DNA from: a bacterium
GTDB taxonomy: Bacteria > Patescibacteriota > Minisyncoccia > Minisyncoccales > Staskawiczbacteraceae
Direction: 5' to 3'
Assembly: GCA_043824525.1 (NCBI GenBank)
Contig: JBDRST010000028.1
Location: 1 to 41,858 of the forward strand
Length of the DNA: 41,858 nt
Part shown: in pieces, positions 3,459 to 41,454 of the stretch
Layout: the number at the start of each line of letters is the position of its first letter
How positions within the stretch are numbered: the first letter of the stretch is position 1
Notes under the pieces: generated by a model
Seen by the model: only the letters and a program-made list of their open reading frames with translations
What the model was told of the DNA's origin: nothing
Databases searched by the model: none
Made by a program: the position numbers and the translations under genes

Positions 3459-4478
3459 ATGAGGATACAAGATATACATAATTTAGCTGTAAAAATGGGC
3501 ATTGATGCTGATTTTAGGGGACGAGAAGGCGTGCAAAAGTTTTTGGATAATAAAAGAAAAAAGTTTGAAAAGATGTCTTCAGAAGAAAAGGAGGAGTTTG
3601 ATAAAGACGCGCTGGATAATCCTTATTTGGATTCTGGGGTTTATAACGTTTCAGAAGACAAGGAAATCAAAAAAGTTTTAGTTGGTATTGATATTACCCC
3701 GTCGGAAATTTTAATGGCAAAACAAATAGGAGATATTGATTTGGTTATAGCCCACCACCCAATAGGAAAAGGTTTAGCTCAGTTAGCTGATGTAATGGAA
3801 TTGCAAGTGGATGTTTGTAATTATTATGGAGTTCCTGTTAATGTTGCAGAAGGTTTGATGAAAGAAAGGATTTCAGAGGTTGCAAGGGGCGTAAACTCTT
3901 CAAACCACCAAAGAACCGTGCATGCTGCAAAATTGATGGGGGTTAACTTAATGAACTCTCATACGCCCTGCGATAATTTAGCAGCTAAATTTTTAAAAAC
4001 TTTTGTTGAAGAAAGGAAGCCGGAAAGAGTTAGCGAGTTAATAAGCATTTTGAAAGAAATTCCCGAGTATAAAGAGGCAATGAAAATTGGGGTGGGACCT
4101 AAGGTTTTTGCGGGGAGCGCTGAAAATAGATGCGGAAAAATTGCTTTGTCTGAAATTACAGGGGGAACAGAGGGTTCGCCAAAGCTTTATGAAAAAATGG
4201 CGCAGGCCGGCGTTGGCACGGTTGTTGGCATGCATATTACAGAAGAGCACAAAAAAGAAGCTGAATTAGCTCATGTTAACATTGTAATTGCGGGACATAT
4301 TTCCTCTGACTCTTTAGGGGTAAATTTATTTTTAGACGAACTTTGCCGACAAAGTCGAGCATCCTCGACCCCGATTTTATCGAGGGTTCACGACAAGGTC
4401 GGAATAGAATCGGGAAAAAATCAGGGAATTGAAATTGTGGCATGCTCTGGGTTTACAAGGTTTTCGAGGGTTAGTTAA
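3459..4478 (+). CDS. NIF3 (NGG1p-interacting factor 3) family dinuclear-metal protein
   Basis: The DLVIAHHP motif and the C-terminal IAGH...GIEIV layout are typical of NIF3/YqfO proteins. It carries the family-A insertion near the C-terminus. Confidence 0.75.
   Translation: MRIQDIHNLAVKMGIDADFRGREGVQKFLDNKRKKFEKMSSEEKEEFDKDALDNPYLDSGVYNVSEDKEIKKVLVGIDITPSEILMAKQIGDIDLVIAHHPIGKGLAQLADVMELQVDVCNYYGVPVNVAEGLMKERISEVARGVNSSNHQRTVHAAKLMGVNLMNSHTPCDNLAAKFLKTFVEERKPERVSELISILKEIPEYKEAMKIGVGPKVFAGSAENRCGKIALSEITGGTEGSPKLYEKMAQAGVGTVVGMHITEEHKKEAELAHVNIVIAGHISSDSLGVNLFLDELCRQSRASSTPILSRVHDKVGIESGKNQGIEIVACSGFTRFSRVS
4346..4415. repeat. Family-A long-form element in frame in NIF3
   Basis: CCGACAAAGTCGAGCATCCTCGACCCCGATTTTATCGAGGGTTCACGACAAGGTCGGAATAGAATCGGGA encodes RQSRASSTPILSRVHDKVGIESG. 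Confidence 0.65.
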
Positions 4479-4594
4479 AAAGATATAAAAAACTGGCTCT
4501 GCTAGTTAAGGATCGCCAGTTTCTGTTAGAGGCATAAGGTTTTGAGGATAAACTGGGGATAATAAGTATCTTCACAGTGGATAAAAGGCTTGAG

Positions 4595-4688
4595 TCTTCA
4601 CCCTAACGGCAATCTTTTAAGCTTTAACAGAAAAAATTCAAGGGGATTGTTCTTTCGCAAAAAAGGCACAATGAGGAGGGTGAAGACT
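4595..4688. repeat. Family-K inverted-repeat element (AGTCTTCACCCT...AGGGTGAAGACT)
   Basis: 12-bp terminal inverted repeat. It has the same termini and about the same length (~95 nt) as the element at 13984-14081. Confidence 0.6.
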
Positions 4689-7811: not shown

Positions 7812-7855
7812 GTCAAATTTTCACTACCCGGGATGATAGGTAGTGAAAATTTGAC
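7812..7855. repeat. Family-B hairpin (17-bp perfect stem GTCAAATTTTCACTACC / GGTAGTGAAAATTTGAC)
   Basis: Read directly from the sequence. Related half-sites occur at 7955-7971 and 10246-10328. Confidence 0.7.
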
Positions 7856-9166: not shown

Positions 9167-9204
9167 TTATACTTATTGTATAATAAGCGAATAAAATGAG
9201 CTTA

Positions 9205-9266
9205 CCCCGCCCTCTATGCTGTAAGTTTTTTTCTGAGAACACGGACATAGAGCTTAGAGGGCGGGG
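9205..9266. repeat. Family-C inverted-repeat element (CCCCGCCCTCTATGC...GCTTAGAGGGCGGGG)
   Basis: It shares termini, including the GGGGTGCTC flank, with 13693-13789. It ends 15 nt before the ATG at 9282. Confidence 0.65.
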
Positions 9267-9281
9267 TGCTCGCAAACTCGC

Positions 9282-9926: not shown

Positions 9927-10245
9927 TGACGACGGATTTTTACAGATTCCGCCAGCTGGCGGATAACGGATTTTCACAGATCACTCCTACGCTCCTACGC
10001 GTAGGAGCGTAGGAGTGGCGTCGTTGCTATCCAGCAGGCGAAGCAATCTCCGTTCCGTGTCATTCCTGCGCTTTGCCATCCCGCAGCTTTAGCGGAAGAT
10101 GGAAAGCGGGAATTTATAAGACATTAATTCATACTTTTCAATCGATTTTTGATGAAAATAAAAAGCAAGGAAAATTTTTCTGCGTAGATCCGCGTTATGT
10201 TCAGCGTGTTTCCGCTTCTACAAATATGAAAAATCAGGAATTAGC
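9927..10245. repeat. Mosaic of several unrelated short palindromes, including a 34-nt perfect palindrome at 9983-10016
   Basis: Components: ACGGATTTT(T)ACAGAT x2, CCGCCAGCTGGCGG, ACTCCTACGCTCCTACG|CGTAGGAGCGTAGGAGT, and a CCTGCGCTTTGCCATCCCGCAGCTTTAGCGG...GGAAAGCGGGA unit. Confidence 0.6.
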
Positions 10246-13677: not shown

Positions 13678-13692
13678 ACGAAGTAATGAGCA

Positions 13693-13789
13693 CCCCGCCC
13701 TCTAAGCCGATTGTTTAAAGGTAGGGTGAACAATTTTACCTTATAATTTAATATTTCCCCTGCCCGGATATTTAGCATAGAGGGCGGGG
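13693..13789. repeat. Family-C inverted-repeat element between rpmI and rplT
   Basis: CCCCGCCCTCTAAGC...GCATAGAGGGCGGGG. It is reverse-oriented relative to the 9205 copy, so both face their downstream gene the same way. Confidence 0.65.
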
Positions 13790-13796
13790 TTTTCGC

Positions 13797-13985
13797 TTAA
13801 AAGCTCAAATATTTTTTAAGTCTTTTTGTTTCTCCTTTGGAAAGATGAACCCATTTTCTACCCTTTCTTTTTCTTTCCCCAGTTTTTTTGGCTCTGTAAT
13901 GATTTTGTCCGGACAGCCTTCTCAGTATTTTTCCGTTTCTGGTTATTTTGAACCGTTTTGTTATGGCTTTTTTTGTTTTGTTCAC
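13797..13985 (-). CDS. rpmI: 50S ribosomal protein L35 (GTG start)
   Basis: (M)NKTKKAITKRFKITRNGKILRR matches the L35 signature. An in-frame TGA two codons upstream forces the GTG start at 13985. Confidence 0.85.
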   Translation of the reverse strand: MNKTKKAITKRFKITRNGKILRRLSGQNHYRAKKTGERKRKGRKWVHLSKGETKRLKKYLSF

Positions 13986-14081
13986 TCTTCACCCAAACGA
14001 GTTTATAATTTTATTCTGTATAAATCTTCACTCATCGGGAACAAATTTTATTTACTCCTCACATTCCTTTGGGTGAAGAGT
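13984..14081. repeat. Family-K inverted-repeat element filling the infC-rpmI spacer
   Basis: ACTCTTCACCCAAA (13984-13997) pairs with TTTGGGTGAAGAGT (14068-14081). One arm contains the rpmI start codon. Confidence 0.6.
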
Positions 14082-15079: not shown

Positions 15080-15086
15080 TATTTAG

Positions 15087-15430
15087 TGGAGATGGAGGAG
15101 GCGAATCCTCGTCTGAAAAGTTTATTAAAATAATTCTACAAGTTTAGTTAATTTTTGTGTTCGAGCATTAAATAAAAAATTAACAAAATTTTTAATGCCT
15201 TATCTCCTTAATTTCGACAGCTTAGTGGAGAAATAAACTATCTATCCTAATAGTATAACACCTCCATTCATCTATTAGGAATCAATGGTGAAGATGCAGC
15301 ATTAAGCGTATGCTAGTGCTGGTTGCTTATTAAATAAATTAGCAATTATGTTTTTTCTTAGAGATTTATGAGCTTAAGACCGCTCAACTTGCCTTACTTT
15401 AAAGAACTAATCATCGAAACAATCATCCCC
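15087..15430 (-). ncRNA. ssrA: tmRNA (SsrA)
   Basis: 5' end GGGGAUGAUUGUUUCGAUGA. 3' end GACGAGGAUUCGCCUCCUCCAUCUCCA. The acceptor stem GGGGAUG/CAUCUCC includes G3-U70, and the discriminator is A. Tag ORF GCU AAU UUA UUU AAU AAG CAA CCA GCA CUA GCA UAC GCU UAA = ANLFNKQPALAYA*. It lies directly after smpB. Confidence 0.85.
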
Positions 15431-15433
15431 ATG

Positions 15434-15907
15434 CTATTCGGATAATTCTCTGTTTACCTCGCGTTCAGCATCTCTTTTCTTAATTTTCTCTTTTTTGTCG
15501 TACTTCTTTTTTCCTTTGGCTAACCCGAATTCAAGCTTAATCCTACCATGTTTATCATAAATTTTCAAGGGGATTAAGGAAAATCCCTTTTGAGCTGACT
15601 TTCCAACCAAATAATCTATTTCTTTTTTATTTAAAAGAAGCTTTCTTTCCCTACTCTCATTATAGTCAGCTCCTGCATTATTTGGTTGATATGGAGGTAC
15701 CCTTACTCCTGTTAAATACGGCTCCACCTTGCCCGCAGAAGCTTTAGCGGAGGAGGGGGCCTTTAGCGTAACATAAGAACCGCTCAGGTTTATATGTCCT
15801 GTTTTTATTGACTTTACTTCCTGCCCAAACAAAACAATCCCTGCCTCAAATTTTTCCAGGATATTATAGTCAAAATATCCCTTCTTATTTTCCGAATATA
15901 TTTTCAT
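15434..15907 (-). CDS. smpB: SsrA-binding protein SmpB
   Basis: NKKGYFDYNILEKFEAGIVLFGQEVKSIK...PYQ...RERKLLLNKKEI...G.SLIPLKIY. The ATG at 15907 is preferred over 15931. Confidence 0.85.
   Translation of the reverse strand: MKIYSENKKGYFDYNILEKFEAGIVLFGQEVKSIKTGHINLSGSYVTLKAPSSAKASAGKVEPYLTGVRVPPYQPNNAGADYNESRERKLLLNKKEIDYLVGKSAQKGFSLIPLKIYDKHGRIKLEFGLAKGKKKYDKKEKIKKRDAEREVNRELSE
15727..15757. repeat. Family-E element in frame in smpB
   Basis: The minus strand reads CCCTCCTCCGCTAAAGCTTCTGCGGGCAAGG, near-identical to 16474-16505, and encodes PSSAKASAGK. Confidence 0.6.
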
Positions 15908-15943
15908 AGTTTTATGGTACCATACTAACATTTTTATTTAACG

Positions 15944-16570: not shown

Positions 16571-17344
16571 ATGCCGTATAGAAAGGAACAGTTTGCAAAT
16601 GGCGAAACATACCACGTTATTTTAAGGGCGCTAGATGACAATCTGGTATTCAAAAATACTGATGATTACTATCGTGGTATCTTTTCTATTTACGAGCTTA
16701 ACAACGTCAATTCCGTCACTATTCAGAAAAGACGAGAAGCAAGAAGGCGTTTTAAAAGACTAACAAATGAGTTGGGTAGAGACCCGAGGTCTACTCAGCT
16801 GAGTAGACCTCGGGTCTCTACTGGCTTGCCTGAATTCGCGGATGAGCGGGATAAATTTGTGGAAGTTTTGGTATTTTGTTTTATGCCTAATCATATCCAT
16901 ATATTAGTAAGACAGATTAAAGATGGTGGTATCTCTAAATTTATGCAAAAAGTTGGAGGAGGTTATGGAAGATATTTTAATGATAAATATCTGCGCAAAG
17001 GACATGTTTTTCAAAACACATTTAGCGCGGTTCATATAAAAGACAACAATCAATTTATGATAGTTGTGCCGTATATTTTTACAAACCCTGTTGCCTTGAT
17101 TGAGCCTGGATGGAAAGAGCATGGAATAAGAAATCACTCTGCAAAGGAGGTTATAAAATTTTTGGAAGAGTATAAATGGTCAAGTTATCAAGATTGCATT
17201 AATATAAAGAATTTTCCCTCTGTAACAGAAAGAAATTTTCTATTGGAAGTCATGGGTGGCGAGCAAGGACTCAAGGACGCCATTGAAAATTGGATAAGAT
17301 ATAAAAAAGATTGGGGAGAATATGACAATTTATTTTTAGATTAA
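16571..17344 (+). mobile_element. IS200/IS605-type Y1 (HUH) transposase, RAYT-like (REP-associated tyrosine transposase)
   Basis: YHVILRA..., HUH motif MPNHIHILV, and a C-terminal helix with Y (VVPYIFTNPV). The same long palindrome lies inside and just 3' of the gene. Confidence 0.7.
16776..16821. repeat. REP-like 46-nt perfect palindrome inside the RAYT coding sequence
   Basis: GTAGAGACCCGAGGTCTACTCAG|CTGAGTAGACCTCGGGTCTCTAC. In frame it encodes GRDPRSTQLSRPRVST. Confidence 0.8.
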
Positions 17345-17347
17345 AAA

Positions 17348-17392
17348 GTAGAGACCCGAGGTCTACTTGTTCAGTAGACCTCGGGTCTCTAC
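17348..17392. repeat. REP-like hairpin (19-bp stem, same sequence) 4 nt after the RAYT stop
   Basis: GTAGAGACCCGAGGTCTAC-TTGTTCA-GTAGACCTCGGGTCTCTAC. Confidence 0.8.
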
Positions 17393-17400
17393 CAGCTTTT

Positions 17401-18201
17401 ATGAGGAAGGAGACAATTATAATTTCGTTAGGGGGCTCGCTGGTGGTTCCAAATGAAATTGATTTAGGATTTTTAAGGAATTTTAAACATTCCTTGGAAA
17501 AGTACTTGTCCCCCACTAACTTTGGGATGGGCAGGCAAGCAACAAAGAAAAGCGAAAATTCCCCAAAGTTAGTGGGGGATAAACGATTTTTTATTTTAGT
17601 TGGAGGGGGCAAGGTGGCAAGAAACTATCAAAAAGCACTTTTGGAGTTTGGGGCAAAGTCATCTGACAGGGATTGGATTGGGATAAATGTAACTATATTA
17701 AACGCAGAGGTTGTAAAAAATGTTTTTGGGCAGCGCTCTTATCCTAAAATTATTACAGATCCAAACAAAAAAGTTAAAACAACAAAGGATATTGTGGTGG
17801 GAGCTGGCTGGAAGCCCGGCTGGTCAACAGATTATGTGGCCGTAAAAATTGCCGAAACATACAACAAAAAAATCCCGACCCGCGGGTCGAGGATCCACGA
17901 TGCCCGCGACAGCGGTCGGGGCATCGGGACAATTATAAATCTTACTAACGTTGACTATGTTTATGATAAAAACCCAAATAACTTTCCCGACGCAAAACCA
18001 TTGAAGGAAGTTGACTGGAAAAGCTTTGAGCGCATTGTAGGAGATAAATGGAGCCCGGGCTTATCTATGCCCTTTGACCCGAGAGCTTCAAAGCTGGCAG
18101 CAAGGTTAAAATTAAAAGTAGCAATAATCAACGGAAAAAACCTTGAACGTTTAGAAGATTTTTTGAATAACAAATCGTTTGTAGGAACCATAATTCAGTG
18201 A
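17401..18201 (+). CDS. pyrH: UMP kinase, archaeal-type (amino acid kinase family)
   Basis: IISLGGSLV..., ILVGGGKVARNY and VGAGWKPGWSTDYVA blocks. Carries two in-frame palindromic insertions. Confidence 0.7.
   Translation: MRKETIIISLGGSLVVPNEIDLGFLRNFKHSLEKYLSPTNFGMGRQATKKSENSPKLVGDKRFFILVGGGKVARNYQKALLEFGAKSSDRDWIGINVTILNAEVVKNVFGQRSYPKIITDPNKKVKTTKDIVVGAGWKPGWSTDYVAVKIAETYNKKIPTRGSRIHDARDSGRGIGTIINLTNVDYVYDKNPNNFPDAKPLKEVDWKSFERIVGDKWSPGLSMPFDPRASKLAARLKLKVAIINGKNLERLEDFLNNKSFVGTIIQ
17509..17579. repeat. Family-D palindromic element in frame in pyrH
   Basis: An 18-bp perfect stem pairs TCCCCCACTAACTTTGGG with CCCAAAGTTAGTGGGGGA. It encodes SPTNFGMGRQATKKSENSPKLVGD. Confidence 0.8.
17873..17930. 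repeat. Family-A element in frame in pyrH
   Basis: TCCCGACCCGCGGGTCGAGGATCCACGATGCCCGCGACAGCGGTCGGGGCATCGGGAC encodes PTRGSRIHDARDSGRGIG. Confidence 0.65.
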
Positions 18202-20459: not shown

Positions 20460-23400
20460 ATGGCATATAATTTTCCTGAAGAGGAAAATAAAATTTTAAA
20501 ATTTTGGCAGGACAACAAGATTTTTGAAAAAACGCTTGAGAAAATCCCGAAGACAAAGTCGTCGTGGATCCTCGATGCCGATTTGATCGAGCATTCACGA
20601 CAAAGTCGGAATAAAATCGGGACAAAAGGCAAGCGCGCTTTTGTATTTTATGATGGGCCGCCTTTTGCAACAGGCCTTCCTCACTACGGACACATTTTAA
20701 GTTCTGTGGCAAAAGATGTTTTTCCAAGATATAAAACAATGCAGGGTTTTTTTGTAGCTCGCAGATGGGGCTGGGATTGTCATGGGCTTCCGATTGAAAA
20801 CATTGTTGAAAAAGAACTTGGGGTTTCTGGAAAAAAAGACATTGAAGCAAAAATTGGAGTAGAAAAATTTAACCAGACTTGCCGCTCAAAAGTTTTAACC
20901 TATACAAAAGAATGGGAAAAGATGGTGAATAAAATAGGAAGATTTGTTGATTTTGATAATTCATACAAAACAATGAGCTCTGCTTATATGGAGTCGGTTT
21001 GGTGGGCATTAAAAACATTGTGGGACAAAGGGTTAATTTATCAAGGCAAAAAAGTTTTGATGTATTGCCCAAGGTGCGAAACTCCAGTTTCAAAAGCCGA
21101 GGTTGCTATGGATAATAGTTATCAGGATGTTACAGAAGAGGCGGTTACAGTTAAGTTTAAAATAAAAAATCCTGAAAAAAATAATTTGCCTGAAAACACA
21201 TATATTTTAGCTTGGACTACAACTCCCTGGACATTACCAGGAAACGTTTCTTTAGCAGTTGGTGAAAAAATAAAATACGCCTTAGTTCAATCTAATGATG
21301 AAAATTATATTTTAGCTAAAGAAAAAGTGAAGGATGTTTTAAGGGATAAAGAGCATAGAACCACGAAAGAAATATCGGGGAAAGACTTACTTGGATTAGA
21401 ATATGAGCCACTTTATAAAATTGAAGAAGTGAAAAAAACAGGTAAAAAAGTTTGGTATGTTTTACCAGCTGATTTTGTAAACACAGAAGAGGGAACCGGA
21501 GTAGTTCACACAGCAGTAATTTACGGAGAAGATGATTATAATTTGGGAGTTAAGAACGATTTGCCAATGGTGCCTTTGTTAGACAGCAAAGGAATTTTTA
21601 ATGAAGATGCTCCTGATTTGATAAAAGGAAAGTATTTTAAAGACTCAGAAAAAGACATTAAAAATGATTTAGAAAAGAGAGGGCTTCTTTTTGATAAGCA
21701 TAGCAATACCCATCCTTACCCTTTTTGCTGGAGGTGTGGGACACAATTATTTTATAACGCTATTTCTGCTTGGTTTATAAATATCCAAAAACACAAGAAA
21801 AAAATTATAAAACTGAATGAAAAAATAAATTGGCATCCAGAGCATTTAAAGCACGGAAGATTTTTAAATATTTTAAAAGATGCTCCTGATTGGAATATAT
21901 CAAGGAACAGGTATTGGGCAACGCCATTGCCGTTTTTCAAATGCGAGTGCGGGCATACAGAATGCATCGGTTCTGTAAAAGAATTAAAGGAAAAAGCGGT
22001 TAATTTTAGCCAAGTTTACAGCTCAGATAAAATTGAGGATATGGATTTGCACAAAGACAAAATGGATAAAATTGAATTAAGGTGCGAAAAATGCGGTAAA
22101 AAAGCAAAAAGAATTCCAGAGGTTATTGATTGCTGGGTTGAGTCCTCGTCCATGCCGTATGCTGAGCTTCACTATCCTTTTGAAAACACGAGCGAATTTA
22201 AAAAAAGGCTGCCTGCCCAGTATATTGCAGAATATATTGCCCAAACAAGAACATGGTTTTATTATCTGCACGTTTTATCTGTTTTGCTGTTTGGCAAAAT
22301 TTCCTTTGAAAATGTCGTTTCTACTGGCACCGTTTTGAATGAAAAAGGAGAAAAGCTTTCAAAATCAAAACAAAACTTCACAGATCCCTGGATTATAATA
22401 AACCAATATGGAGCAGATGCTTTAAGGTTTTATTTAATGTCGAGTTCTGTAATGCAGTCAGAGGATTTATTTTTTAGCGACAGGGGTGTGAGAGAGAGTT
22501 ATAATAAAGTTATAAATACGCTATCTAATGTTGCGGAATTTTATACAATGTACGCGTCAGAAAACTCAGGCAGTATAAAAATAAATCCGACAAATATTTT
22601 AGATAAGTGGATATTGAGCAGGTTAAACGGCGCCATCTTTGAACTGACTGTTTCAATGGATAAATACGATACTGTAAAGTCTTGCAGAATTATTAAAAAT
22701 TTTATTGAGGAGCTGTCTTTGTGGTATATTAGAAGGTCAAGAGAAAGATTTAAAGAAGATGGCTCGTCCCCCACTAACTTCAAATTAAAAGCAGAAGAAC
22801 AAGGAATGAACTCGAAGTCGGATTTGAAGTTAGTGGGGGATAAAGATAAAAACCAAGCTGGAGCTGTTTTAAGATTAGTGCTGTTAGAGCTTTCAAAAGC
22901 GATAGCTCCCATTTTGCCTTTTACCGCAGAGTATGTTTTTGAAAAAGTAAGGGGCGCGGATAACGCAGAATCAGTGCATTTAGAAGATTGGCCTAAGCAC
23001 AATAAAAAATTTATTAACAAAGACCTTGACGGAAAAATGGACGAGGTAAGAAAAATTGTTAGTTTGTCTTTAGCAGAAAGAGTTTTAAATGGTTTGAAAA
23101 TAAGACAGCCATTAAATAACTTAAAAATCAAAAACGAAAAATCAAAAATTAAGGACGAAAAAGAATTGCTTGTTTTAGTAAAAGACGAGGTGAATGTTAA
23201 AAATATTGATTTTGATGCAAGCATAGAAAAAGAAGTTGAACTTGATGCTAATCTCACAGAGGAGTTAAAGGAGGAAGGCATAATAAGAGAAATAATTAGG
23301 CAAGTACAGGGTGAAAGAAAAAAACAGGGACTGGTACCCCAAGATAAAATTTCTGTAATTATTGCTGGAGATAAATATGTTGTAGATCTAATAGAAAAAA

Positions 23401-23495
23401 ATAAAGATTTTTTACTGAAAACATTCAGAGCAACAGAGATTATCACAGAAAAAGAGGAGGGTGTAAAATTATCTATAGTTATTAAAAAAGTATAA
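20460..23495 (+). CDS. ileS: Isoleucine--tRNA ligase
   Basis: PPFATGLPHYGHIL (HIGH), WDCHGLP, KLSKSK (KMSKS) and zinc-binding CxxC pairs. Carries two in-frame palindromic insertions. Confidence 0.9.
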   Translation: MAYNFPEEENKILKFWQDNKIFEKTLEKIPKTKSSWILDADLIEHSRQSRNKIGTKGKRAFVFYDGPPFATGLPHYGHILSSVAKDVFPRYKTMQGFFVARRWGWDCHGLPIENIVEKELGVSGKKDIEAKIGVEKFNQTCRSKVLTYTKEWEKMVNKIGRFVDFDNSYKTMSSAYMESVWWALKTLWDKGLIYQGKKVLMYCPRCETPVSKAEVAMDNSYQDVTEEAVTVKFKIKNPEKNNLPENTYILAWTTTPWTLPGNVSLAVGEKIKYALVQSNDENYILAKEKVKDVLRDKEHRTTKEISGKDLLGLEYEPLYKIEEVKKTGKKVWYVLPADFVNTEEGTGVVHTAVIYGEDDYNLGVKNDLPMVPLLDSKGIFNEDAPDLIKGKYFKDSEKDIKNDLEKRGLLFDKHSNTHPYPFCWRCGTQLFYNAISAWFINIQKHKKKIIKLNEKINWHPEHLKHGRFLNILKDAPDWNISRNRYWATPLPFFKCECGHTECIGSVKELKEKAVNFSQVYSSDKIEDMDLHKDKMDKIELRCEKCGKKAKRIPEVIDCWVESSSMPYAELHYPFENTSEFKKRLPAQYIAEYIAQTRTWFYYLHVLSVLLFGKISFENVVSTGTVLNEKGEKLSKSKQNFTDPWIIINQYGADALRFYLMSSSVMQSEDLFFSDRGVRESYNKVINTLSNVAEFYTMYASENSGSIKINPTNILDKWILSRLNGAIFELTVSMDKYDTVKSCRIIKNFIEELSLWYIRRSRERFKEDGSSPTNFKLKAEEQGMNSKSDLKLVGDKDKNQAGAVLRLVLLELSKAIAPILPFTAEYVFEKVRGADNAESVHLEDWPKHNKKFINKDLDGKMDEVRKIVSLSLAERVLNGLKIRQPLNNLKIKNEKSKIKDEKELLVLVKDEVNVKNIDFDASIEKEVELDANLTEELKEEGIIREIIRQVQGERKKQGLVPQDKISVIIAGDKYVVDLIEKNKDFLLKTFRATEIITEKEEGVKLSIVIKKV
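20545..20623. repeat. Family-A long-form element in frame near the ileS N-terminus
   Basis: TCCCGAAGACAAAGTCGTCGTGGATCCTCGATGCCGATTTGATCGAGCATTCACGACAAAGTCGGAATAAAATCGGGAC encodes PKTKSSWILDADLIEHSRQSRNKIG. Confidence 0.7.
22767..22840. repeat. Family-D palindromic element in frame in ileS
   Basis: A 19-bp perfect stem pairs TCCCCCACTAACTTCAAAT with ATTTGAAGTTAGTGGGGGA. It encodes SPTNFKLKAEEQGMNSKSDLKLVGD. Confidence 0.8.
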
Positions 23496-26178: not shown

Positions 26179-26233
26179 GCAGTCACAGCCAGAAGTAACT
26201 AATAATTGGTTGGTGTTTTCTGGCTGTGACTGC
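26179..26233 (+). promoter_or_regulatory. 16-bp perfect hairpin in the ~140-nt 5' leader of the DGR target gene
   Basis: GCAGTCACAGCCAGAA (26179-26194) pairs with TTCTGGCTGTGACTGC (26218-26233). It is preceded by the hairpin TCCGTCAACTGACGGA (26162-26177). Confidence 0.5.
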
Positions 26234-35337: not shown

Positions 35338-35497
35338 TAGACCTGTTGCTTAATAAGGATTTATGCTGCAATTTGAAATTTTGGCTGTAAAATCATAAAA
35401 ATTCGTCAGCTTGCCGAAGGGCAAACCTTTGAATTTTTCTGATTTTTCGCTCAAAATTTCTTCATTTCGCTTATAATCTTATTAAGCAACAGGTCTA
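35338..35497. repeat. ~160-nt hairpin element, copy 2 (family S), inverted relative to copy 1
   Basis: The terminal stem pairs TAGACCTGTTGCTTAATAAG with CTTATTAAGCAACAGGTCTA. A TATAAT at 35333-35338 abuts it. Confidence 0.7.
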
Positions 35498-41408: not shown

Positions 41409-41454
41409 TCTAAATACGTTAAATTCTGCTATAGCAGAATTTAACGTATTTAGA
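41409..41454. promoter_or_regulatory. 46-nt perfect palindrome (23+23) upstream of the PaaX-like gene; operator or bidirectional terminator candidate
   Basis: TCTAAATACGTTAAATTCTGCTA|TAGCAGAATTTAACGTATTTAGA. Confidence 0.5.

Follow-up and report, generated by a model that had tools for sequence, protein, structure and literature searches.

An ~80-base DNA hairpin apparently read through as ~25 extra amino acids in two essential genes of an ultra-small Patescibacteria/CPR bacterium

Rickettsia is the best-known case of palindromic insertions lying in frame within essential genes, and to our knowledge the enzyme behind these insertions has never been identified. The Rickettsia palindromic elements (RPEs) were reportedly described by Ogata et al. 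in 2000 under the title "Selfish DNA in protein-coding genes of Rickettsia". RPEs are treated also in PMC3733652 and PMC10969869. Pairs of REP repeats with RAYT enzymes, together with the REP superfamilies tagged by GTAG or CGTC, are described by Di Nocera et al. (2013; PMC3733652), and miniature inverted-repeat elements (MITEs) lying within bacterial open reading frames are exemplified by the enterobacterial RU/ERIC elements (PMC2759123; reviewed in PMC10969869). Ssn proteins are single-domain GIY-YIG nucleases that cut single-stranded DNA beside their own flanking hairpin repeats, NTS/SRM (Chenal et al. 2025; PMC11893778). The Ssn clade corresponds to cd10448 (GIY-YIG_unchar_3) in CDD, and 2% of the NTS repeats are intragenic (PMC11893778).

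The window, that is, the whole stretch of 41,858 nucleotides analyzed here, comes from an ultra-small bacterium of the Patescibacteria/CPR, in which, judging from the sequence, a hairpin of ~80 bases appears to be read through as ~25 extra amino acids in two essential genes. The two hairpins of the window are copies of a dispersed family of DNA palindromes of Patescibacteria, here termed family D. In the literature searched, which covered the motif sequences, in-frame palindromes in CPR and GIY-YIG hairpins in Patescibacteria, no published description of this family was found. In our opinion, the D family makes the problem posed by RPEs tractable. It belongs to a different, very large and poorly understood bacterial radiation; its anatomy, with fixed arms and a free centre, is simple and diagnostic; and a small GIY-YIG nuclease, a candidate for the cognate enzyme, is encoded between the same arms. 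With these features, the idea that such elements are driven by single-strand nucleases specific for hairpins becomes directly testable.

Two hairpins within pyrH and ileS

The window contains exactly four matches to the arm sequence TCCCCCACTAACTT or its reverse complement (17509-17522, 17566-17579, 22767-22780 and 22827-22840), while shuffled sequences average 0.31 matches and none of 100 shuffles reaches four. The first hairpin lies in pyrH (17509..17579, forward strand) and is composed of a left arm at 17509-17526, an unpaired centre at 17527-17561 and a right arm at 17562-17579, forming a perfect stem of 18 bp with a loop of 35 nt. The second lies in ileS (22767..22840, forward strand), with the left arm at 22767-22785, the centre at 22786-22821 and the right arm at 22822-22840; here the perfect stem has 19 bp and the loop 36 nt. 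Predicted folding energies are -41.4 kcal/mol (z = -6.5) for the pyrH hairpin and -33.9 kcal/mol (z = -5.5) for the ileS hairpin. A first-pass annotation of this DNA had reported two perfect stems that differ at their inner ends and enclose unrelated loops, and the sequence is as it claimed: the inner ends are TTTGGG/CCCAAA in the pyrH copy vs TTCAAAT/ATTTGAA in the ileS copy, and the loop sequences are unrelated. The same annotation placed both copies in one reading frame with a shared peptide, SPTNF...KLVGDK, which was confirmed in both host ORFs; the pyrH copy encodes SPTNFGMGRQATKKSENSPKLVG(D) and the ileS copy SPTNFKLKAEEQGMNSKSDLKLVG(D).

Outside the stems, further positions are constrained to purine or pyrimidine, following the family pattern YTYR-YC...GR-YRAR. 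Thus, the extended pyrH copy (17505..17583, forward strand) adds the outer positions CTTG...TAAA, and the extended ileS copy (22763..22850, forward strand) has CTCG...TAAA together with a tandem GATAAA GATAAA at the right junction. An Rfam search of the window detected no family at either hairpin, the tmRNA being the sole match. The window also holds a separate GTAG-type family, GTAGAGACCCGAGGTCTAC, which flanks a RAYT-like ORF.

The first host gene (17401..18201, forward strand) encodes UMP kinase, an archaeal-type PyrH of 266 aa, which matches AA_kinase of Pfam and uridylate kinases of the PDB. The second (20460..23495, forward strand) encodes isoleucyl-tRNA synthetase (IleRS) of 1011 aa. 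The insert occupies approximately residues 37-60 of PyrH, between helix 22-33 and strand 61-67, and in the AlphaFold model of PyrH it is a coil of low confidence (pLDDT < 50) forming a surface loop. In IleRS, the insert corresponds approximately to residues 770-795 and lies between two helices of the anticodon-binding domain, where, according to the structure alignment, 26 insert residues replace 2 residues of the solved IleRS 8c9d. It should be noted that the placement of D inserts in loops or between helices was checked for these two window genes only.

Both hairpins are insertions relative to orthologues. Most of the 120 PyrH orthologues listed have 225-228 aa, and the aligned ones of such length lack the D segment. 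A syntenic relative (L176) has empty sites in both genes, reading TAT TTG AAA GAT AAA CGA in pyrH and AGT CAA GAT AAA GCA in ileS. The GATAAA at the right junction is host-like in pyrH and a tandem duplicate in ileS, where the second GATAAA matches the host DK codons of the empty orthologues. Filled and empty sites were also paired for a DHH protein (L141 vs L160 and L159) and for PGK (L160 vs L159); the pairs compared for the ends of the insertion are 57-83% identical, and the net insert measures +22 to +26 aa. The orthologues without the segment and the empty sites of the syntenic relative bear out the earlier proposal that a palindromic element is tolerated here as an in-frame insertion.

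Census and reading frame of the family

A scan of metagenomes returned 35 loci with both exact arm cores, each of which has its own centre. This sample was chosen by exact 12-mer arm cores, and arm conservation, including that of the orthologous KsgA and SpoU copies, is not measurable from such a sample. The family is characterized by inverted-repeat arms of ~20 nt with the consensus YTYR-YCCCCCACTAACTTTG (19-25 bp when measured as terminal inverted repeats), followed by 3-5 paired variable bp and by an unpaired, A-rich centre of ~25-30 nt. The hosts identified by Pfam are about 20 different genes with mutually unrelated housekeeping functions, including S1, RecR, KsgA (three copies), an HtrA-like protein, SpoU (two copies), PGK, a DHH/RecJ-like protein, DeoR-HTH, TGT, an ADK-like protein, ArsA (two copies), DnaE, DegT, Metallophos, UvrC and DUF4015, along with PyrH and IleRS of the window. 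A protein search with a profile of the tandem motif added a UPF0102 protein and a ferredoxin, both genuine; with E-values scaled to 5.8 billion sequences, the search gave no other match at E <= 10. The scan of genome contigs with the bare 14-mer gave single chance matches only, with both arms present in 0 of the 120 loci listed, and no copy of the D hairpin was found in the viral contigs scanned. A 74-nt match in a GC-rich soil contig (L131) was dropped as a probable assembly artefact: both strands encode the same mirrored ORF, and the match is therefore the centre of a fold-back.

The centres of D copies are unrelated, A-rich and hydrophilic, and even at orthologous sites their identity is only about 45-50%. 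No common centre was found between non-orthologous copies among the sampled loci; thus, no recent copy-and-paste event has been caught.

D hairpins are compatible with translation, in that each confirmed genic copy uses the one frame that the arms leave open. All 21 genic copies confirmed by Pfam are in frame 0 and space their arms by a multiple of 3 (matched lengths of 64, 67, 70 or 73), so the motif census, here run on metagenomes, agrees with the single tolerated frame deduced from the two window copies. The arm spacing is off a multiple of 3 in four copies without a gene, with matched lengths of 60, 62, 72 and 77; by chance, the four out-of-frame lengths would all belong to the 7 copies that are non-genic or uncertain with a probability of 35/20475 = 0.0017. 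Moreover, 22 of 22 copies have no stop in the sense frame, compared with 7.3 expected when the centres are shuffled. Copies without any ORF are found at L125, where the hairpin is nested inside another hairpin, and at L135.

The earlier statement that only one frame in three is usable stands, since the arms themselves close both alternative frames, but its assignment of the stops needs correction. CAC TAA in the left arm and GGA TAA at the right junction, which had been assigned to two frames, share one frame, and the third frame ends at AGT TAG within the right arm, not at GGA TAA. The expectation that both orientations of insertion yield the same arm peptides holds as well. Taken as a whole, the D hairpin looks like a selfish DNA element that survives where the host protein stays unbroken.

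A candidate GIY-YIG nuclease and competing explanations

The window has no GIY-YIG gene. In another D-bearing contig (L141, 4257-4556), a GIY-YIG remnant that matches Pfam PF01541 with E = 1.9e-17 lies between D-like arms. Its intact homologues (P0123-P0133) are stand-alone, single-domain proteins of ~88 aa (range 86-89). In related Patescibacteria, D-type arms exactly bracket an intact 88-aa GIY-YIG nuclease gene, which is lodged in rnpB, the gene for RNase P RNA, within its P3 stem-loop. In the 12 contigs examined for three of the homologues (L159-L170; for P0123, P0124 and P0133), the nuclease ORF is bounded by CCCCCCACTAATTTTG(C/T)CC...GG(G/A)CAAAATTAGTGGGGGG, and the stop codon sits within the right arm. 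These arms have 15 of 16 bases in common with the D arms, with a compensated change; in the rnpB unit, the D-type arm is read in another frame than in protein genes and supplies the stop codon. A homologue, 55% identical, occupies the same place in rnpB between covaried arms, and other GIY-YIG ORFs are bracketed by other arm families.

Co-occurrence of the D hairpin and the nuclease is seen in two related lineages only (L141 and L160-L162). In L160-L162, the nuclease unit is found together with a canonical D copy in pgk; in one such genome, the mini-hairpin lies 2.6 kb from the unit. The PDB structures closest to the nuclease are the UPF0213 proteins 1ywl (E = 7e-8) and 1zg2 (E = 6e-6), and its sole NCBIfam match, below threshold, is to a group I intron endonuclease. 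The nuclease-bearing unit is seen at one conserved locus only, rnpB P3, and therefore does not demonstrate its own mobility; the arms of this unit could be partly the native P3 helix. The centres of the mini-hairpins were also considered as relics of GIY-YIG ORF ends, and inspection gave no convincing similarity.

The explanation that we favor, with a probability of roughly 0.6, is that D hairpins would be ORF-less relatives or cognate recognition hairpins of the GIY-YIG element, with selection keeping in-frame copies in permissive loops. The nuclease would recognize extruded or single-stranded D hairpin DNA, as Ssn does with NTS/SRM and RAYT with REP, and, after cleavage or repair, the hairpin would be copied to new sites, possibly with the help of short homology at the ends. 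Copies that break the frame would be purged by selection, leaving those that are in frame, have a hydrophilic centre and lie in a surface loop. The arms would stay intact as the target of the enzyme or of a palindrome-correcting process, while the centre would drift.

We consider it possible, on distinctly longer odds, that Patescibacteria harbor an active system of hairpin and nuclease, in which a stand-alone, Ssn-like GIY-YIG single-strand nuclease, its gene residing in the P3 loop of RNase P RNA, recognizes a DNA hairpin of 20-25 bp and is responsible both for its spread and for its intact arms, through cleavage and subsequent repair or gene conversion. If this is true, essential proteins across the phylum would have been seeded with translated "protein-coding palindromes" whose centres evolve freely. 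These would then be the first palindromic elements in reading frames for which a cognate enzyme is identified, and RPE-like elements in general might be explained in the same way.

It is unlikely, in our estimate, that the D hairpin is of the miniature inverted-repeat or REP type and is mobilized by a transposase, for example by the IS200-like/RAYT-like Y1 enzyme encoded upstream of pyrH (16571-17344). This ORF, which resembles Y1_Tnp/REP-associated tyrosine transposases, abuts pyrH; Y1-type enzymes use single-stranded DNA hairpins; and the D element has terminal inverted repeats and copies both within and outside genes. However, the Y1-like ORF goes with the other palindrome, GTAGAGACCCGAGGTCTAC, copies of which lie inside the ORF and just downstream, and the GTAG head of that palindrome, typical of REPs, is absent from D arms. 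Furthermore, D copies, unlike those of MITEs, share no common internal sequence, and the sole protein gene found between D-type arms is that of the GIY-YIG nuclease.

Improbable, too, is an explanation at the protein level, according to which a modular peptide (SPTNF, a hydrophilic loop, KLVGD) serves as a useful surface hairpin or linker and the DNA palindrome is its by-product. The peptides encoded by the arms do not vary, K, E, S and N are overrepresented in the centres, and filtering does take place at the protein level, as shown by asymmetries that follow the coding direction (on the left, Ser over Leu; on the right, Lys over Glu). Nevertheless, the third-codon positions in and beside the arms keep nucleotide identity or purine/pyrimidine class, neither of which is needed by amino-acid selection, and copies exist outside genes, one nested in another hairpin (L125) and one in an RNA gene. 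The modelled insert, moreover, is a low-confidence coil, and it is unlikely that one and the same module would be required by about 20 unrelated enzymes.

The stem itself indicates the level at which its symmetry is kept. Across the copies, 96% of cells are paired, both partners have changed in 6 pairs, and the observed covariation score is reached in 0 of 500 shuffles. At stem pair 7-66, 12 copies have CG and 9 have UA, and arm variants with compensated changes include ACCAAC/GTTGGT and CCTCCTAAC/GTTAGGAGG. The outer six stem positions contain Watson-Crick or transition-type pairs only, with 0 transversions. Mismatches read on the sense strand are G·U in 10 cases vs A·C in 8 within the inner stem; at the outer positions, A·C is found 34 times vs 24 for G·U. 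Since G·U is not preferred among the mismatches, the symmetry is kept in DNA, not in mRNA: compensated changes keep the stem symmetric, and the constraint acts on DNA.

These data bear directly on a regulatory role in mRNA, the hairpin being an RNase III site, a translational pause or a stabilizer of host transcripts, which we regard as similarly improbable. RNA folding predicts very stable stems (-34 to -41 kcal/mol, z below -5), and the stem covaries; yet A·C is about as frequent as G·U on the sense strand, as fits a DNA palindrome and not an RNA helix, the hosts are functionally unrelated, and the D hairpin is present in non-coding DNA as well. The suggestion of the first-pass annotation that the stem would be an obstacle in mRNA or a substrate of RNase III accordingly found no support.

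Finally, it is highly implausible that the segment goes untranslated, being removed from RNA or skipped by the ribosome as an intervening sequence or bypass element: CPR rRNA genes are known to carry insertions, and some processed intervening sequences likewise have conserved helix ends around a free interior, but neither removal nor bypass needs a stop-free interior or a spacing in multiples of 3, the frame is kept by all confirmed genic copies and not by non-genic ones, and no Rfam family matches the hairpins. An integron attC site, considered for the CTAAC/GTTAG core, was dismissed in view of the perfect stems and the intragenic copies, and no integrase was seen.

Comparison with known systems

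Alignments of CPR marker proteins, IleRS, PyrH, KsgA, DnaE and UvrC among them, are inflated and disrupted by D inserts, which may also cause errors in gene models or domain calls. The same inserts are natural maps of insertion-tolerant loops.

The D family behaves as a functional class resembling RPEs: its insertions preserve the frame, copies occur in many unrelated genes as well as in non-coding DNA and rnpB, and in the window genes the insert lies in a permissive loop. As with RPEs, a palindromic repeat is found in frame in many unrelated, often essential genes of a reduced-genome bacterium and is translated as an extra surface segment, with further copies in non-coding DNA and RNA genes. 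Unlike RPEs, which measure ~100-150 nt, the D element has ~80 nt and belongs to the phylum Patescibacteria. Only its arms are conserved, each copy having its own centre; the arm sequence closes two of the three frames on both strands; and the arms also bracket a GIY-YIG gene. Membership in any of the Rickettsia families RPE-1 to RPE-8 is disfavored by taxon, length and the variable centre.

D hairpins resemble MITEs: both are small, non-autonomous, bounded by terminal inverted repeats and able to sit in frame inside a gene. In contrast, MITE copies share internal sequence and usually have a related, transposase-bearing IS, neither of which was seen for the D family. Target-site duplications are also usual for MITEs; of the two D copies in the window, the one in ileS has a tandem GATAAA at its junction and the one in pyrH does not. 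As in REP/RAYT pairs, the palindromes of the D family are short and dispersed and go with a single resident enzyme whose gene has its own repeats on either side, and the presumed substrate in both cases is a hairpin of single-stranded DNA. However, D arms begin with YTYR-YCCCCC and have no GTAG head, just 4 of 44 arm ends have CGTC, the enzyme that goes with the D arms is a GIY-YIG nuclease and not a Y1 transposase, and REPs are extragenic by definition.

The resemblance to Ssn lies in a single-domain GIY-YIG protein of ~90 aa, the gene for which is bordered by a hairpin-forming repeat with further copies scattered over the genome. Membership of the D arms in SRM is excluded: a regex scan with the GTC-tagged SRM consensus HGTCWYN(0-2)YYVSBRHN(0-5)WNVSBRGN(0-2)RNCYNB gave 0 matches in the window and in L141, L142, L159, L160, L165 and L171. 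Cleavage of single-stranded DNA beside its own hairpin has been shown for Ssn. The arrangement differs too, the D-type nuclease gene being situated inside one hairpin (arm-ORF-arm) and the Ssn gene between two complete hairpins. D stems are longer (19-25 bp) and enclose a centre of 25-30 nt, and most sampled D copies are intragenic, as opposed to 2% of the NTS repeats.

Two in-frame hairpins in pyrH and ileS

Counting its reverse complement, the 14-mer TCCCCCACTAACTT has exactly four instances in the whole window, arranged as two hairpins (17509-17579 and 22767-22840); shuffled sequence contains 0.31 matches on average, with a count of four in 0 of 100 shuffles. The first hairpin lies within the ORF of an archaeal-type UMP kinase (pyrH, 17401-18201) and the second within that of isoleucyl-tRNA synthetase (ileS, 20460-23495). 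The first-pass annotation, made by a model from the sequence alone, had described perfect stems with differing inner ends, unrelated loops and a common reading frame, all of which is confirmed. The stems of 18 bp (loop of 35 nt) and 19 bp (loop of 36 nt) contain no mismatch, their inner ends differ between the copies with pairing kept, and both copies are read as SPTNF...KLVGDK. Predicted RNA folding energies are -41.4 and -33.9 kcal/mol (z = -6.5 and -5.5). The claim that only one frame in three is open also holds, the arms themselves closing the other two; GGA TAA, however, does not close a separate frame as had been stated, being in the same frame as CAC TAA of the left arm, while AGT TAG of the right arm closes the other. 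The finding is real, and its original interpretation is essentially right.

Both hairpins are insertions, situated in tolerant places of their host proteins. PyrH residues ~36-58 have no counterpart in the aligned Pyrococcus UMP kinase, and the 120 closest PyrH proteins, from Staskawiczbacteria-like Parcubacteria, are mostly 225-228 aa long and read ...LQKYL-KDK/GAR/GKT-RFF... at this site. The relative L176, which is syntenic with the window (gene order smpB-pyrH-argS-His_Phos-ileS), is without a hairpin at either site (TAT TTG AAA GAT AAA CGA in pyrH, AGT CAA GAT AAA GCA in ileS). Filled and empty sites differ by a net +22 to +26 aa. In IleRS, 26 residues stand in place of 2 in the solved IleRS 8c9d, between two helices of the anticodon-binding domain. 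The structural model of PyrH that the first-pass annotation had called for (AlphaFold, pTM 0.74) renders the insert as low-confidence coil (pLDDT < 50) between helix 22-33 and strand 61-67.

Junction sequences give hints of short homology or of a preferred target at new sites. The empty pyrH site of L176, the nearest relative, already contains TTTG AAA GATAAA, resembling the element's two outer ends joined; at the ileS junction GATAAA is tandemly duplicated (22841-22852; pyrH counterpart at 17580-17585), and KLVGDKDKN recurs in an unrelated ferredoxin (P0122). The pattern may reflect target preference, microhomology, target duplication or an excision footprint.

Several different short inserts occupy the same pyrH loop in orthologues, and the loop is therefore an insertion hot spot. 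Two orthologues (L174, ~675-700; L175, ~10110-10135) carry the 26-nt segment CCCCACTTCGCCAAGGCTTCGCGGGG (peptide PTSPRLRG), identical in both despite differing flanking synonymous sites; its start and end resemble the arms of the window hairpins, and it may be a collapsed copy or another element. Yet other short inserts (GDSPAKFADAHRGV and others) are found in more orthologues. The window pyrH also has a second in-frame insertion (KIPTRGSRIHDARDSGRGIGT, 17873-17925, residues ~157-176), GC-rich in a genome of 36% GC, with two hairpins (-37.8 kcal/mol, z = -5.4) and a modelled pLDDT < 50. It is absent in the 17 other aligned orthologues; P0002, the closest relative, carries a shorter one at this site.

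Reading frame and DNA symmetry in the dispersed family

The window hairpins belong to a dispersed palindrome family, D, with fixed inverted arms and a free centre. Public metagenome contigs were scanned for the two 12-nt arm cores at a spacing of 25-55 nt, which recovered 35 loci from groundwater and sediment samples; the centre is different in every non-redundant copy. Pfam assigns the hosts to ribosomal protein S1, RecR, KsgA (three orthologues, one site), HtrA-like protease, SpoU methylase (two orthologues, one site), phosphoglycerate kinase, DHH/RecJ-like, DeoR-type regulator, tRNA-guanine transglycosylase, adenylate-kinase-like, ArsA, DnaE, DegT, metallophosphoesterase, UvrC and DUF4015 proteins; two further hosts, a UPF0102 protein and a ferredoxin, came from a motif search.

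D copies are strictly filtered by reading frame. All confirmed genic copies share one frame, (L/S)(S/P)PTNF - 13-16 residues - KLVG(D/G)(K/E), and their matched lengths are 64, 67, 70 or 73 nt without exception, as against 60, 62, 72 and 77 nt for copies without a surrounding gene; the probability that the seven non-genic or uncertain copies would include all four of the out-of-frame lengths is 35/20475 = 0.0017. In 22 of 22 copies the sense frame has no stop, compared with 7.3 expected from shuffled centres. The centres, 50% A, encode mostly K, E, S and N. Genic copies in stop-bearing frames, which the first-pass annotation had proposed to seek in a census as evidence against its reading, were not found in these metagenomes.

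Copies at the orthologous KsgA and SpoU sites have identical arms, centres of ~45-65% identity and different codons for 45% of conserved residues, a pattern that fits an insertion that is old and has its arms protected. In a sample picked on exact arms, the pattern may also arise from recurrent insertion into one site.

The essential dnaE gene of L150 (364-4806, minus strand) has been invaded by selfish insertions of two kinds: besides a D insert near the HhH region it carries an intein (Pfam Intein_splicing). In L125 (408-481), the D-like palindrome CCTCCACTAAAATTTAGTGGGGG is nested in the centre of a D copy, suggesting that insertion can also target the loops of hairpins; comparable nesting surrounds another GIY-YIG gene in L142 (4098-4484). 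A GC-rich soil contig matching the arm cores (L131, 1694-2632), with the same N-terminal peptide on both strands of a large fold-back, is unrelated to the family and probably an assembly artefact.

The constraint on the stems acts on DNA symmetry and not at the level of the mRNA. In an alignment of the copies built inwards from either end, pairing across the 19 stem positions is 96% and six pairs have changed on both sides, a covariation score matched by none of 500 shuffles; at the outermost covarying pair, 12 copies have C-G and nine have T-A, and diverged copies have compensated arm changes (ACCAAC/GTTGGT, CCTCCTAAC/GTTAGGAGG). Sense-strand mismatches comprise 10 G·U and 8 A·C in the inner stem and 24 G·U and 34 A·C at the six outer positions, and thus no wobble preference of the RNA-helix type is seen. 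The outer positions (YTYR-YC / GR-YRAR) vary by transitions only, with no transversions even at third-codon positions, for which amino-acid selection is no explanation.

A GIY-YIG nuclease gene within D-type arms

D mini-hairpins and a GIY-YIG nuclease gene have a common arm family. When the fetched loci were searched with relaxed criteria, L141 yielded the arms CCCCCCACTAATTTTGTCC...GGACAAAATTAGTGGGGGG, each of 28 nt (4257-4284 and 4529-4556) and separated by 244 nt, which share 15 of 16 bases with the D arm, the single change being compensated, and enclose a GIY-YIG ORF with one in-frame stop. Its intact homologues (P0123-P0133, 86-89 aa) bear the NCBI name [quoted passage not shown]. In the 12 contigs fetched for three of them, the ORF starts a few bases past the left arm, its TAG stop lies within the right arm, and inner arm positions covary (TTTTGCCC/GGGCAAAA versus TTTTGTCC/GGACAAAA).

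The unit is flanked by ...GGTGAGTGATT and AGGAAAGTCCGAAC..., and in its Rfam alignment to bacterial RNase P RNA (E = 5.7e-24) the right arm falls on the 3' strand of helix P3; the nuclease gene therefore lies in the P3 loop of rnpB. P1/P2 are upstream of the left arm, GAGGAAAGUCC directly follows the right arm, and the start and stop regions of the ORF are base-paired in the stem. In several Patescibacteria, intact ORFs of 86-88 aa occupy this stem-loop (L159, 9981-10603; L160, 4790-5344; L165, 4187-4804; L171, 1827-2115), and the layout persists even for a homologue with only 55% protein identity, whose arms are CCCCCCACCACTTTTT/AAAAAGTGGTGGGGGG. No earlier report of a protein-coding gene within rnpB is known to us.

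In the genome of L160-L162, pgk contains a canonical D mini-hairpin at a distance of 2.6 kb from the nuclease unit, and L141 carries the degraded nuclease and a D copy in its DHH gene. Two other GIY-YIG ORFs in the fetched loci are bracketed by other arm families, likewise with a C-run at the start. No GIY-YIG gene was found in the 41.8 kb of the window.

By analogy, the GIY-YIG protein is a plausible candidate for the cognate nuclease of D hairpins. The mini-hairpins would be ORF-less relatives or cognate sites of the GIY-YIG element, and the enzyme, by the precedent of Ssn, would handle them as single-stranded or extruded DNA. Ssn are single-domain GIY-YIG proteins of ~94 aa, encoded by genes flanked by their own hairpin repeats, that cleave single-stranded DNA beside the hairpin and leave duplex DNA and RNA uncut; their authors liken NTS-ssnA-NTS to insertion sequences and RAYT/REP (PMC11893778).

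Neighbouring palindromes and known systems

Palindromic elements are unusually abundant in the window. An IS200-like/REP-associated tyrosine transposase-like ORF (16571-17344) immediately upstream of pyrH contains, in its own reading frame, a perfect 46-nt palindrome (GTAGAGACCCGAGGTCTACTCAG plus complement, 16776-16821); the same GTAG-headed hairpin recurs just downstream (17348-17392), a second in-frame hairpin family, here within what is presumed to be its own transposase. At least five more inverted-repeat families are mostly intergenic (965-1128 and 35338-35497; 1245-1377; 4593-4688 and 13984-14081; 9204-9267 and 13692-13790; 9982-10017; 7812-7855; 26179-26233; 41409-41454). Arms of several start with a C-run (ACCCCGCCCTCTA, CTTCACCC, CCCCACACCAATTTT), as do GIY-YIG-bracketing arms of related loci. 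The smpB/tmRNA-pyrH interval (smpB, 15434-15931, adjoining a minus-strand tmRNA gene at 15084-15430; Rfam RF00023, 93 bits) appears to be a recurrent landing site for mobile-element genes: in the window it is occupied by the RAYT-like transposase, in L175 (8989-9993) by a reverse transcriptase (RVT_1) and in L176 by a 157-aa ORF without a recorded Pfam match.

No description of the D family was found in open-access literature. In behaviour it comes closest to the Rickettsia palindromic element (RPE), with in-frame, surface-exposed insertion into essential genes of a reduced genome; Ssn/SRM and RAYT/REP come closest where association with an enzyme is concerned. D arms carry neither the GTAG head of REP nor an SRM head (0 SRM matches), and D copies are mostly genic in this arm-core-selected sample, whereas 2% of NTS are reported to be genic. 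Further differences from these systems lie in size, in the fixed arms and free centre, in the arm-ORF-arm layout and in host phylum, and the D element is best filed as a new variant within a known class, the protein-coding palindromic elements.
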